Assembly (NCBI RefSeq): GCF_041248615.1
Contig: NZ_CP158425.1
Direction: 5' to 3' (one strand)
DNA: 64,000 nt
Source of the DNA: Escherichia coli
Lineage (GTDB): Bacteria > Pseudomonadota > Gammaproteobacteria > Enterobacterales > Enterobacteriaceae
Part shown: one piece after another, positions 60,001 to 63,000 of the stretch
Layout: every line of letters starts with the position of its first letter
How positions within the stretch are numbered: position 1 is the stretch's first letter
Made by a program: the position numbers

Positions 60001-63000
60001 CTGTGCGGAAGGATGCAGCCTTCGGTATTAAATTTAATGGGGCACAGGCGGCTCCAGGCGAGTCAGTTGAGGTGCAAATAGATATGGGCCAGGGGGATAA
60101 TCTTCTGTTACCCGTTTATCCTTCCGAAAATGGGAAAGTTGGCACCTCAGAATTCATGATTCAGATCGACGAGTTGAAGTAACTACCCGGAGCCGACAGT
60201 AAAACTGACGGCTTCAATTTTACTGCCCTCCTCGACTCCGATCAGCCAGTACGTCTTCAGAGATTCGCAAGGAAGAACCGAAAGAAAAGTTACTTTAATC
60301 GTACGTTTCCAGCGATGCTTTCAAAAGACAATGCATACTCGTTGATTACGACAATGGGAGTGAGTGTCGAACCCCTTGAGTAAGGATACTTGGTAAATAT
60401 ACAGCCCCGGGGATTCTCTTCCTTCAACCGGGGATGACAACGGGAGTGAGTCCGGCAACTCACACCTGTTGTCACTTCTCTGACATATCGTCATACGAGC
60501 TTACTCAAGCGCATCCACAAAGATGGGATCGTTTTGAATCTAAACTGGTACTGGTTAGCCAGTCACTTGCATCTACTCCCCCGTCGATATTTAAGTGACA
60601 ATTGTAGTGATCTGCAATACTGGTGTCTCAGAAACACTGACGACGGTAGAGACTCAATACCCTAACCCCTGACAACAGAAGTGAGCTTAGAGGTGTTACG
60701 CTGCTGTCACCTAATGCTTGGGAATTGCCTGACTCACAACCATTGTCATCCGGAGCTACTGATTAACGTTGAACCGCTGGACTTTAATGACAGTGGTAGT
60801 GATGGATAGGCTCATTTCCATTGTCGTCATTTTATCGGACAAGCCTCTTCGTCCTACAGGTTTAAGCTGACAATGGTAGTGATTGGATGATCTCACTACT
60901 GTTGTCACTCAGTTCTTTGAGCGGACCCTTCCCTCGGTTGGTCGGCATTAACAACGGTAGTGACTCGATTGGCTCACTGCCATTGTCATCGTGTAAATGA
61001 CGTACCTTATCAGCTCAGCTGAAAGCAATGACAACGGTAGTGACTCTAATTGCTCACTGCCATTGTCGTCGTGTCTATTGAGAGCCTTATCAGTGCACCT
61101 GAAAAGCAATGACAACGGTAGTGATTCTAATGGCTCACTACCGTTGTCACCGTGTGTATTGAGAGGATGGTCCACCTAACTGGACGTATATGACAATGGT
61201 AGTGACTTTAATAGCTCACTACCATTGTCGGTGTGTGAATTGAGAGGATGAGCAGCTCAGCTGTACGTCCATGACAATGGTAATGACTTAATGAGCTCAC
61301 TACCGTTGTCACCCTGTTAATTAAGAGGCTCATCTGCTCTTCTGGAAGGCTATGACAACGGAAGTGACTTGCTGGGCTCACTGCCATTGTCGCCGTATGA
61401 ATTGAGAGGATCATCCGCTCTTCTGGATGGCAATGACAACGGTAATGACTTAATAGGCTCACTACCATTGTCACCCTGTGAATTGAGAGGATGATCTGCT
61501 TAACCAGACGGCCATGACAACGGTAGTGACTTTCTGGGCTCAATACCGTTGTCACCCTGTGAGTTAAGAGGTTGACCCGCTCTACTGGACGGCCATGACA
61601 ACGGTAGTCACTTTCTGGGCTCACTACCGTTGTCACCCTGTGAGTTAAGAGGTTGACCCGCTCTACTGGACGGCCATGACAACGGTAGTCACTTTCTGGG
61701 CTCACTACCGTTGTCGCCATATAGAATGAGAGGAGCATCAGCTCAACTGAACGGCAATGACTACAGTAATGAGCTGGATGAAGCATAACCATTGACATCT
61801 GGCCCAACCGGAAGCCGTATTCGCCAATCCAATCGAGATTCACAATGGCCGTGACTCGCCGCATTAAGTTCCGGTGTCCTCCCAAAGCTGAACGCACACT
61901 CGGAGGACAATGACAATGCCAGTAAGGTACACATCATTACCATTGTCACTATAGCTACCAGAGAAGCCGGGATTTGAATGTCGATGGTAGTGAGTGGGTC
62001 AACTCACTGCCATTGTCACCCCGTTACGATATTTTCCGTTGGATGTACTGGCCAATGAAGTAAAGCGTAGAAACCGGGTGTTAACAGGTGACTCAGGAGA
62101 AAGCGTTGAATTTCGCAATCTCGATCTACATAGGGTGGTAGAGAACAATGACAACGGTAATGACTTTTGACTCATTACCGTTGACGTGAAAGAGCGGGCT
62201 GGGACTAACGAAAATCGAAGAAGTAATTTAGCACCCGGAGCCTAAACCGCCGGGTTAACTTTAGCTGGCGTTGCTGTTCTTTTTCTGGCTTCGAAGACTA
62301 CGAATATAGCGCAGTTCTTCAGCGGTTAAATCATGGACGGTAAGAACATCATCGCCGTCAATCGGGTCAGCTGGTGGGCATAACTCACCTTCTAAAACAG
62401 AAGACCCTGAGTTCTCTTCTTCATCTTCAACCACTTCTAAAGGAGGCTGAGTATTGTTCAAATTCAGATCGGGATCCCGCTTATGAATCTGGAAGTATAC
62501 TTTTCCGTCTTTCTTAATTTCGGTGTACTTGAGGTATCCTATCGATGCCAACTCTTCAAGAGCCTTTCTCACGGTAGCATTCTGACTATTTGCTCGTGTT
62601 TTGAGGTTCAGACGATTTTTCAGCCGAGTAAGGGATATCGGTATAGGATTTGGCGGTAATGACTCTATGAACGTATAGAGAGCCTGGGCGCTTTCCTTCT
62701 TGGCCAACTCCTTAATTGCCTTCAGCTGCATCAAAACCTTATGATCGTATTGATAGAGCTCGAAAATCTTAGGATCAACCTGAAGGACAACCTGATCTGA
62801 TTCCGGGTCTAACAGGGCAGACTGTACCAGATGCGTTGTATAGACTTTGGACGAGTTATTACTGGTGAACGACAAGGTAACGGATGCTAACCTGCGTAAG
62901 GAGGCGTCTATACGTTTTCTGGACGCTGTAGATGAGCGATAATTTTCAGGCGTACATAGCTTGAGGAATTCAGTGAATTTTAAGCTTATCGTGTCATTGT

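Follow-up and report, generated by a model that had tools for sequence, protein, structure and literature searches.

Convergent pairs of the origin iteron make up the long-iteron array downstream of repHI2 in IncHI2 plasmids, a probable incA-type negative-control locus

The long tandem array that lies just downstream of the replication initiator gene of IncHI2 plasmids is built from inverted pairs of the same iteron that is found in the origin, and we think it probable, with odds of roughly seven in ten, that this array is the negative-control locus of the RepHI2A replicon, serving incompatibility and copy control in the manner of P1 incA by binding the initiator RepHI2 and acting via handcuffing and titration. 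The window analysed here, a stretch of 64,000 nucleotides from Escherichia coli (contig NZ_CP158425.1), is IncHI2 backbone, and the array fills positions 60349-62186 of it, within the intergenic gap that separates an Ig-like-domain gene, which stops at 60182, from the 3' end of repHI2 (stop codon at 62261). What the field has called a 'long iteron' consists of two canonical iterons, which form a 40-bp dyad, and a linker of 41 bp behind them.

The array is of course already known, since it is collinear with the array of plasmid R478 that was described in 2001 and 2004. The gap between the Ig-like-domain gene and repHI2 measures 2,077 bp in R478 against 2,078 bp in the window, the two are 97.4% identical and collinear, and the R478 array has the same 81-bp period and the same unit number, with point differences only. 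The original descriptions are those of Page, Whelan and Colleran (2001) and Gilmour et al. (2004). In its passages on R478, PMC8490738 reports twelve iterons of 80-81 bp at a distance of about 500 bp from repHI2, for which cloning had suggested functional activity; the 'long iterons' of R478 are also cited in a passage of PMC4980987. Both hallmarks of the RepHI2A (R478-type) replicon are present in the window, namely repHI2 as initiator and about twelve 80-81-bp repeats some 500 bp away from it. Where these secondary sources deal with the unit, those passages give it as a long iteron of 76-81 bp and make no mention of a substructure of dyad plus linker, and a literature search on IncHI2 iteron function returned only IncN iterons or repHI2 as a PCR marker. 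Our additions are modest: the dyad substructure itself, the dyad as the element probably under selection, and a geometry that appears to be specific to the RepHI2 clade.

The initiator gene, repHI2 (62261-63349, minus strand), encodes a protein of 362 aa that is 100% identical to the annotated IncHI-type plasmid replication initiator RepHI2, and the annotated protein sharing this identity comes from plasmids typed IncHI2A. RepHI2 shares 41% identity with P1 RepA and about 50-55% with initiators that carry a RepFIB or RepA annotation, so that the first-pass annotation, which had called the replicon RepFIB-like from the sequence alone, placed it correctly. The protein also matches phrog_775 (E = 6e-110); Pfam and NCBIfam scans returned no family model for it, and a PDB sequence search gave chance matches only. 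DnaA-like boxes, a GATC cluster, an AT-rich stretch and phased iterons all lie upstream of the gene, and the array lies downstream. The origin core (63421-63880, no strand assigned, GC about 0.39) has DnaA-box-like sites at 63443, 63524, 63766, 63775 and 63870, and nine GATC sites fall within 63421-63724, against a window average of 3.4 per kb. A first iteron cluster (63569-63667, minus strand) contains five same-orientation sites with 21-bp phasing, which lie at 63569, 63590, 63611 (a variant), 63632 and 63653 and are overlapped by a promoter-like element, TTGACA-17-GACAAT, at 63605-63577. Only the start of a second cluster is present, at 63993-64000 on the minus strand, where the window end cuts off the rest; in relatives this cluster comprises five phased 21-bp sites. 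The array itself lacks DnaA boxes, an AT-rich stretch and a GATC cluster, its GATC density being average and its GC 0.46-0.51, and the idea that it might be a replication origin was rejected on these grounds.

Scanned at up to four mismatches with a 15-bp half-site, TGACAACGGTAGTGA, the stretch 60349-62186 yields 39 sites, and 16 pairs of these are strict convergent dyads, whose two sites start 23-25 bp apart (exactly 25 bp in 12 of the 16); the rhythm of about 80 bp is kept also by several solitary or very degenerate sites. The array arm, TCACTACCGTTGTCA, matches the origin iteron, TCACTACTnTTGTCA, which in the origin stands in direct orientation at 21-bp spacing. Both observations bear out the first reading of the region as about 18 palindromic pairs at 60350-62190, in which every unit is an inverted pair of the origin iteron. 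With a centre-to-centre spacing of 25 bp the two arms of a dyad sit on different faces of the helix, an arrangement that a model of the incA type neither predicts nor excludes.

Tandem Repeats Finder reports an 81-bp period over 60944-61772 (10.3 copies, 78% matches), and the array has a regular core of eleven 81-bp units, one of them 80 bp long, at 60862-61752. Each core unit opens with the 40-bp dyad, ATGACAACGGTAGTGAC-N7-GCTCACTACCGTTGTCA, and continues with the 41-bp linker (..CCyTGTGAATTGAGAGGAT..GCTC..CTGGA). A degenerate twelfth unit follows at 61753-61833 (left arm TGACTACAGTAATGA, right arm ..ACCATTGACA), so the count equals the published 'twelve 80-81 bp iterons'; the core ends about 490 bp from the repHI2 stop and the twelfth unit about 430 bp from it. 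To the left, the array is decayed (60349-60861), with one clear dyad at 60435/60460, a weaker one at 60788/60812 and, at 60349, 60596, 60638, 60670 and 60734, sites that stand alone or pair weakly, and in some plasmids an ISKpn18 insertion is tolerated in this part. The rep-proximal part (61840-62186; like the whole array, the core, the twelfth unit and the left part, it is assigned no strand) includes a very degenerate site at 61840 and dyads at 61911/61934, 61979/62004 and 62149/62172. The last of these (62149-62186, minus strand) is the dyad nearest repHI2, lying 75 bp beyond its stop codon, and, read along the rep strand, it has the score of a terminator-like hairpin, with a 12-bp stem and then TCATTGTTCT, so that it may double as the repHI2 terminator.

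The half-site belongs to the replicon. At up to two mismatches TGACAACGGTAGTGA occurs in the window, beyond the array, only in the origin at 63569-63667, and at up to four mismatches the remaining 60 kb or so outside the replicon hold 17 weak matches; a pattern, TGACAAYGGTARTGA, allowing one mismatch, gives 28 matches, all of them in the replicon, where shuffles expect 0.03. In NZ_CP022165.1, a related 233-kb plasmid of which about 228 kb were scanned, the half-site is confined to the array, the two origin clusters and a single dyad just past the clusters, the sole exception being one two-mismatch match inside an unrelated gene.

This distribution bears directly on the suggestion that the array is a partition centromere bound by ParB or ParR. 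Tandem palindromic sites in non-coding DNA near a replicon do resemble sopC, for example, and in P1 the par operon comes directly after incA. On a related IncHI2 plasmid, however, the Tra2 region, some 30 kb away from the array, is the site of parA/parB (15974-18228) and of parM and its partner gene (21334-23021), the half-site does not occur near these genes, and a different repeat array (249 bp x 12.6) stands directly upstream of parA. The site in our array is the RepHI2 origin iteron and not a par operator, and with neither adjacency to a partition operon nor a site shared with one, the centromere was rejected as a candidate; we consider it very improbable.

The array region is present in 1,127 records from many genera. 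Compared across all of them, the unit number is 11, 12 or 13, and length variants differ by exactly one 81-bp unit; the region is also 100% identical in many independent complete plasmids, which settles an early worry that the repeat might be an artefact of assembly. A collapsed array was seen in none of 45 records sampled at even steps, and a megablast search of a phage collection with the array gave no match. One might argue that all of this reflects neutral, selfish expansion, in which a single dyad was amplified by slippage or unequal crossing-over and has been tolerated and not selected. Indeed, the core units are homogenised, the last three being so nearly identical that a recent duplication is indicated, the unit number is polymorphic, the array edges are decaying and an IS insertion in the left flank is tolerated. 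Against this stand the narrow range of plus or minus one unit over the 1,127 plasmids, the absence of collapse in the 45 sampled, and the consideration that 39 high-affinity-type sites for an autoregulated initiator would hardly be neutral for replication.

Another point against neutral expansion comes from a diverged, Citrobacter-centred lineage, whose Rep is 86% identical and whose rep and origin are collinear with ours at 75.6% nucleotide identity. Downstream of rep, this lineage aligns with the window only at the 40-bp dyads. Its array has about 35 half-sites in 1.45 kb, mostly convergent with a 24-26-bp offset, shows no 81-bp period and lacks the linker motif, and across 108 of 110 plasmids its identity exceeds 99%. 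The sites therefore persist independently of amplification, and neutral expansion appears quite unlikely. As far as the sequences can tell us, selection probably keeps the dyad with its fixed 25-bp geometry, and not the 81-bp unit.

If the dyad is what is kept, it might be kept as a nucleic acid structure, with dyads acting as RNA hairpins or, in single-stranded DNA, as hairpins or cruciforms that might, for instance, give priming or promoter signals on the strand transferred in conjugation. Single dyads do fold as DNA hairpins, at -12.8 to -16.1 kcal/mol with z = -4 to -6, and the proximal dyad fits a terminator-like pattern, yet the arms do not covary: departures from the arm consensus are uncompensated in 63 cases and matched in 9, no better than a permutation expectation of about 6 (p about 0.09). 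Such independent variation of the arms is what would be expected of two protein sites, and not of a selected hairpin. Moreover, the arm is the origin iteron, which in the origin is arranged in direct repeats that are unable to pair, and no Rfam family applies, a scan over 59000-64000 giving only a chance miRNA-like match on one dyad. We rejected a structured RNA or single-strand element for want of compensatory changes, and regard the hairpin proposal as extremely improbable.

The repeat also generates an open reading frame of 229 aa (61208-61897, minus strand), which was dismissed as spurious from the beginning, and rightly so. It stays open because the 81-bp unit is 27 codons without a stop in that frame. 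The proposal that the region encodes a repeat protein can point to the persistence of an open frame of 229 to 241 codons in IncHI2 lineages and to a hypothetical protein annotated there in a few records, but variation among units by codon position (33/53/26) peaks at position 2 and is smallest at position 3, contrary to what a coding sequence would show. Most RefSeq records have no PGAP annotation in the region, and over the array of the diverged lineage no similarly long ORF exists, the longest being 145 aa (at one end) and 104 aa. Its companion proposal, a CRISPR-like array of 40-bp palindromic repeats and 41-bp 'spacers', draws on a superficially similar alternation of repeat and spacer lengths, but the 'spacers' are copies of one another where a CRISPR would have unique ones, and in a related plasmid the annotation shows no cas gene in the 9 kb to either side. 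Both proposals are barely credible.

We are brought back to the negative-control locus. Its repeats are the same as the origin iterons, and it sits outside the origin, beside a gene of the P1 RepA/RepFIB family. Of the three roles first suggested for the array, handcuffing or incompatibility and a sink for the initiator appear to fit all of the sequence evidence, because the array lies downstream of rep as incA does, its sites are origin iterons confined to the replicon, and its dyads are conserved in the diverged lineage; the third, a centromere, fell with the distant par genes. From these features we infer RepHI2 binding, handcuffing and an effect on copy number. As each dyad arm is a complete copy of the origin iteron, each would bind one RepHI2 molecule, and the array would thus offer about 39 sites against about 10 in the origin. 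RepHI2 bound to the array would pair with RepHI2 at both origin clusters and so block the origin, in cis by looping over 1.4-3.7 kb or in trans by handcuffing between sister plasmids, and the array would also soak up free initiator. The predicted net effect is that a plasmid of 200-440 kb is held at about one copy per chromosome, which would make the array an IncHI2-specific incompatibility determinant, and the 81-bp periodicity would then have come about incidentally, as one dyad and its linker were amplified in tandem and homogenised.

IncHI2 plasmids also carry a second replicon, with unrelated iterons (AAAGCATTTnnnTGAAT) in a conventional layout, and cross-talk between the array and that replicon was rejected on this ground. 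In addition, repHI2 can be lost in evolution experiments with IncHI2 plasmids (PMC9599605). Given the second replicon and this loss, it is not guaranteed that the array alone controls the copy number of the whole plasmid.

The five relatives examined, P1 among them, have no regular dyads, so a plain incA model leaves the dyad geometry unexplained, and this geometry may point to something extra, such as the binding of dimers. One idea is that the dyad does more than pack iterons compactly, and that each one captures paired or dimeric, replication-inactive RepHI2, the array being a dimer-specific sink or sensor, or a pairing and fork-barrier element like the family of repeats (FR) of oriP; we hold this to be unlikely. 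Were it true, dimer-capturing dyads would control iteron replication in another way than the handcuffing of monomers at incA. The oriP family of repeats of Epstein-Barr virus consists of about 20 tandem 30-bp units with a palindromic EBNA1 site, about 1 kb from an origin with a few such sites. On a reading modelled more closely on it, the array would be a cis-acting maintenance or fork-barrier element whose roughly 20 palindromic sites bind RepHI2 dimers, with a role in pairing or segregation, or in stalling forks for one-directional replication, instead of or besides copy number. The architecture agrees, in that a few origin sites are combined with a tandem array of about 20 palindromic sites 1-2 kb off, the array stands on one side of the origin only, and two lineages conserve the dyad geometry, which is missing from relatives whose incA-type clusters are of the ordinary kind. 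However, the plasmid already has parAB and parMR, with a separate 3.1-kb repeat array beside parA, and a dyad arm comprises a whole iteron, whereas the dimer operators of F, pPS10 and R6K use half iterons. A Tus/Ter barrier was rejected after a scan of the window and a related plasmid for the Ter consensus, which found no sites. The oriP of Epstein-Barr virus belongs to a eukaryotic viral episome, with an unrelated protein and a tethering and segregation role, and so serves as an analogy only; we judge this maintenance reading to be unlikely.

Why should one care about such a locus? In Salmonella, E. coli and Enterobacter, much of the carriage of mcr-1, mcr-9, ESBL and carbapenemase genes, and of metal resistance, falls to IncHI2 plasmids as major vehicles, so a locus of copy number and incompatibility would be of practical use both for replicon typing and as a target when such plasmids are to be cured by incompatibility. 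The testable questions are whether a dyad takes up two monomers or one dimer, and whether dyad number sets copy number.

Among known systems, the tandem units of PMC8490738 are likewise long and lie near the rep gene of a large conjugative plasmid, and in the passages concerned its authors compared them with the R478 array, but they have no sequence similarity to the RepHI2A array. On chromosome 2 of Vibrio cholerae, extra RctB sites at ori2-inc, next to the minimal origin, reduce copy number because they titrate the initiator and promote handcuffing (PMC6090056); there, however, the initiator is unrelated, the 39-mers are distinct from the origin iteron and the sites number only a handful. 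The Citrobacter-centred MOBH megaplasmid lineage (for example, pRHBSTW-00881_2), possibly IncHI4, has the same two phased origin clusters and convergent dyads downstream, and differs in that the spacing of its dyads is irregular and solitary sites lie among them. The RepFIB, SSU5-like and Pantoea relatives (four examined) have about 4-15 irregular downstream sites and no dyads, and the dyad geometry seems specific to the RepHI2 clade. Under what we regard as the best explanation, the array would be the counterpart of P1 incA, F incC and the downstream iterons of RepFIB, all of which, like it, repeat the sequence of the origin iteron at a place outside the origin, immediately behind an autoregulated rep gene from one protein family. 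Copy-number control by P1 incA reportedly works by handcuffing and titration, according to Chattoraj and colleagues. The annotated order of the P1 archetype, in which a DnaA box, Dam sites and five 21-bp incC iterons containing PrepA are followed by repA and the nine iterons of incA, is shared by the RepHI2 window, with its DnaA-like boxes, GATC cluster, phased iterons with a promoter-like site, repHI2 and array; PrepA overlaps the incC iterons just as the promoter-like element overlaps the first RepHI2 cluster. In size and regularity the two differ, and the array is, as had been remarked from the start, unusually large and regular: P1 incA has 9 sites in 285 bp, three forward and then six reverse at spacings of about 30-40 bp, whereas the RepHI2A array sets out 39 sites in 1.84 kb, as repeated convergent dyads with an 81-bp period.

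The first-pass annotation described 60350-62190 as a tandem array of inverted iteron pairs beside a RepFIB-like replicon, and this account is borne out by the half-sites, dyads and 81-bp period that we find at 60349-62186. A scan for the 15-bp half-site TGACAACGGTAGTGA, allowing up to four mismatches, returns 39 sites within these coordinates and 17 weak matches in the rest of the window outside the replicon (~60 kb), the only good matches in the window beyond the array lying at 63569-63667; the degenerate pattern TGACAAYGGTARTGA, with at most one mismatch, matches 28 times where 0.03 would be expected (27 in the array, one at the origin). 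Sixteen pairs form convergent dyads, 12 with a start-to-start offset of exactly 25 bp and all within 23-25 bp, and Tandem Repeats Finder reports an 81-bp period across 60944-61772 (10.3 copies). The regular core, 60862-61752, comprises eleven 81-bp units (one of them 80 bp), each a 40-bp dyad ATGACAACGGTAGTGAC-N7-GCTCACTACCGTTGTCA and then a 41-bp linker, and is directly followed by a degenerate twelfth unit; on both flanks more decayed dyads and solitary sites keep a rhythm of ~80 bp, and the array with these flanks wholly occupies an intergenic gap of 2,078 bp. The dyad nearest repHI2 (62149-62186, minus strand) lies 75 bp beyond its stop codon and scores as terminator-like on the rep strand, with a 12-bp stem and then a T-rich tail; it may serve as both a RepHI2 site and the rep terminator.

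The element is the RepHI2A iteron array already published for R478-type plasmids, as citations of the R478 array in earlier papers show: PMC4980987 speaks of R478 iterons "up to even 76-bp", and PMC8490738 of twelve 80-81-bp iterons ~500 bp from repHI2 for which cloning suggested functional activity. In R478, the IncHI2 reference, the counterpart intergenic region (2,077 bp) is 97.4% identical, collinear and equal in period and unit number. The region was found in 1,127 plasmid records, by whose annotation 62261-63349 (minus strand) is repHI2, and is 100% identical in numerous complete IncHI2A plasmids from E. coli, Salmonella, Klebsiella and Yersinia. Among 45 records taken at even steps down this ranking, the matched span is 2,800-2,803 bp in 22 (the window's unit number), 2,720 bp in 17 (exactly one 81-bp unit fewer) and 4,188 bp in two (an additional unit, with ISKpn18 inserted in the decayed left flank), with four partial matches at 17-91% query coverage; mapping the sites in four representatives confirmed counts of 11, 12 and 13 units. 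The array thus recurs stably across independent assemblies, its polymorphism bounded and of slippage type, which settles the early concern over an assembly artefact. A bounded unit number also makes neutral expansion unlikely, and that reading is further opposed by dyads that are conserved even without tandem structure.

Such dyads are seen in a diverged lineage of Citrobacter-centred MOBH plasmids (190-370 kb), whose Rep is 86% identical and whose rep and origin are 75.6% identical to the window in nucleotide sequence and collinear with it. On the 3' side of rep only the ~40-bp dyads align, in either orientation, and this downstream region has neither the 81-bp period nor the linker motif TGAATTGAGAGGAT; it holds ~35 half-sites in 1.45 kb, mostly convergent pairs offset by 24-26 bp, and exceeds 99% identity in 108 of 110 plasmids. 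Because dyads are kept without period or linker, we read the dyad with its fixed geometry as the conserved functional unit, and the 81-bp "long iteron" of IncHI2 as a single dyad with its linker, amplified in tandem and homogenised recently. What we add to earlier descriptions is that the long iteron resolves into a conserved dyad, together with comparative evidence that selection acts on that dyad. Single strands of the dyad are predicted to fold, but the arms do not covary: 63 departures from consensus are uncompensated and 9 matched, with ~6 matched expected by permutation. This independent variation favours two protein-binding sites over a hairpin under selection and, with no Rfam family matched, leaves a hairpin or RNA element barely credible. 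The 229-aa ORF, dismissed at first pass as spurious, was likewise rejected as coding: variation by codon position (33/53/26) is the opposite of a coding pattern, no ORF of similar length lies over the diverged lineage's array, and the frame is open because 81 bp makes 27 stop-free codons. A CRISPR array was rejected too, its "spacers" being copies of one another.

Upstream of repHI2 lies the first origin cluster (63569-63667), five sites in a single orientation with 21-bp phasing and a promoter-like element within; past it come nine GATC sites in ~300 bp, an AT-rich stretch and several DnaA-box-like sequences. The GATC cluster suggests that the RepHI2A origin might be under methylation-dependent control. 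The array itself has no origin features and was discarded as an origin. Five further phased 21-bp sites form a second cluster that starts at 63993 (the window stops inside it; it is complete in relatives), and two iteron clusters ~330 bp apart therefore enclose the DnaA-box- and GATC-rich core, as also in the diverged lineage (example locus L006, 1080-1165 and 1503-1587) and in relatives with ~50% Rep identity. One of the five sites in each cluster is a conserved variant beginning TCATTACCAACGT, with five mismatches to consensus (63611-63625, and the equal phase position in cluster 2), which may represent another type of site or an iteron kept weak by design. On the origin's far side relative to repHI2, ~320 bp past the window end (window-equivalent 64318-64352; 12323-12358 in the R478 locus L018), sits an isolated dyad, TGACCATGGTAGTGA-N6-TCACTACCATGGTC, with a shorter gap than array dyads. 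Across ~228 kb scanned of NZ_CP022165.1, a related 233-kb IncHI2-type plasmid, the half-site occurs in the array, the two origin clusters and one isolated dyad just past them, the sole other match (two mismatches) falling inside an unrelated gene; none was found near the second replicon, parAB or parM.

A partition centromere, also offered by the first-pass annotation, is very improbable, given that the par genes lie ~30 kb off and have no sites in common with it, and that parA is adjoined by a different repeat array. The latter (L008 12504-15594 on NZ_CP022165.1; 3.1 kb, 249-bp units, 12.6 copies, 73% matches) occupies the unannotated gap from a TraC-family gene to parA, is unrelated to the RepHI2A array and may be the ParAB cis site. 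The same plasmid encodes its own Tus-like terminus-binding protein (L009 6406-7368) and Dam-family methyltransferase (L011 2817-3590); a scan for Ter-consensus sites came back empty for both the window and the fetched parts of this plasmid. Three paralogous ~800-aa genes annotated as Ig-like domain-containing flank the replicon on both sides (window 57762-60182, plus strand; 1-910 and 13158-15614 of locus L001). Further off, an IS3-family element (32197-33505; overlapping 108-aa and 296-aa transposase ORFs) is absent from the closest fetched plasmid, which instead carries ISApl1-mcr-1-pap2 at window-equivalent 34930 and an IS66 element at 20550.

The best-supported reading, to which we give a probability of about 0.7, is that the array is an incA-type negative control locus. 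Array-bound RepHI2 would pair with RepHI2 on the origin clusters (handcuffing) and the array would titrate free initiator; both effects would lower the frequency of initiation and turn the array into a determinant of incompatibility. The handcuffing and sink roles first proposed are the most likely. P1 copy control works by handcuffing. The identity and position of the sites, their restriction to the RepHI2A replicon and their conservation pattern are direct observations; binding, pairing and the copy-number effect we infer through P1 homology and the analogous control system of Vibrio cholerae chromosome 2 (PMC6090056). The simplest reading is that each dyad would seat two RepHI2 monomers head to head, since each arm is a full iteron; capture of a RepHI2 dimer is a more novel alternative. 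A pairing or fork-barrier role like that of oriP-FR, drawn from analogy, has a small chance of being correct. Phenotypes of the array may be masked on the whole plasmid, because IncHI2 plasmids carry a second replicon and repHI2 can be lost in experimental evolution (PMC9599605).

How, then, does the array compare with known systems? RepHI2 is 41% identical to P1 RepA and 50-55% identical to RepFIB/RepA-annotated initiators of F-type plasmids, SSU5-like phage-plasmids and Pantoea plasmids, and matches phrog_775 (6e-110) and no Pfam or NCBIfam model. Its origin has the layout of P1 oriR plus incC, annotated with a DnaA box, five Dam sites and five 19-bp iterons at 21-bp spacing with PrepA inside. 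P1 incA has nine sites in 285 bp, three forward then six reverse; downstream sites are irregular and of mixed orientation in a RepFIB example (~4) and two SSU5-like phage-plasmids (~10-11), and irregular but mostly of one orientation, opposite to the origin iterons, in a Pantoea plasmid (~15 over 1.1 kb), while the IncHI2 plasmid's second replicon has ~6 unrelated iterons in a conventional layout. Repeated dyads were found in none of these replicons, and the RepHI2 clade is therefore distinct, both in site number (39 in the RepHI2A array versus ~10 at its origin) and in regular head-to-head pairing, which upholds the initial impression of an unusually large and regular array.
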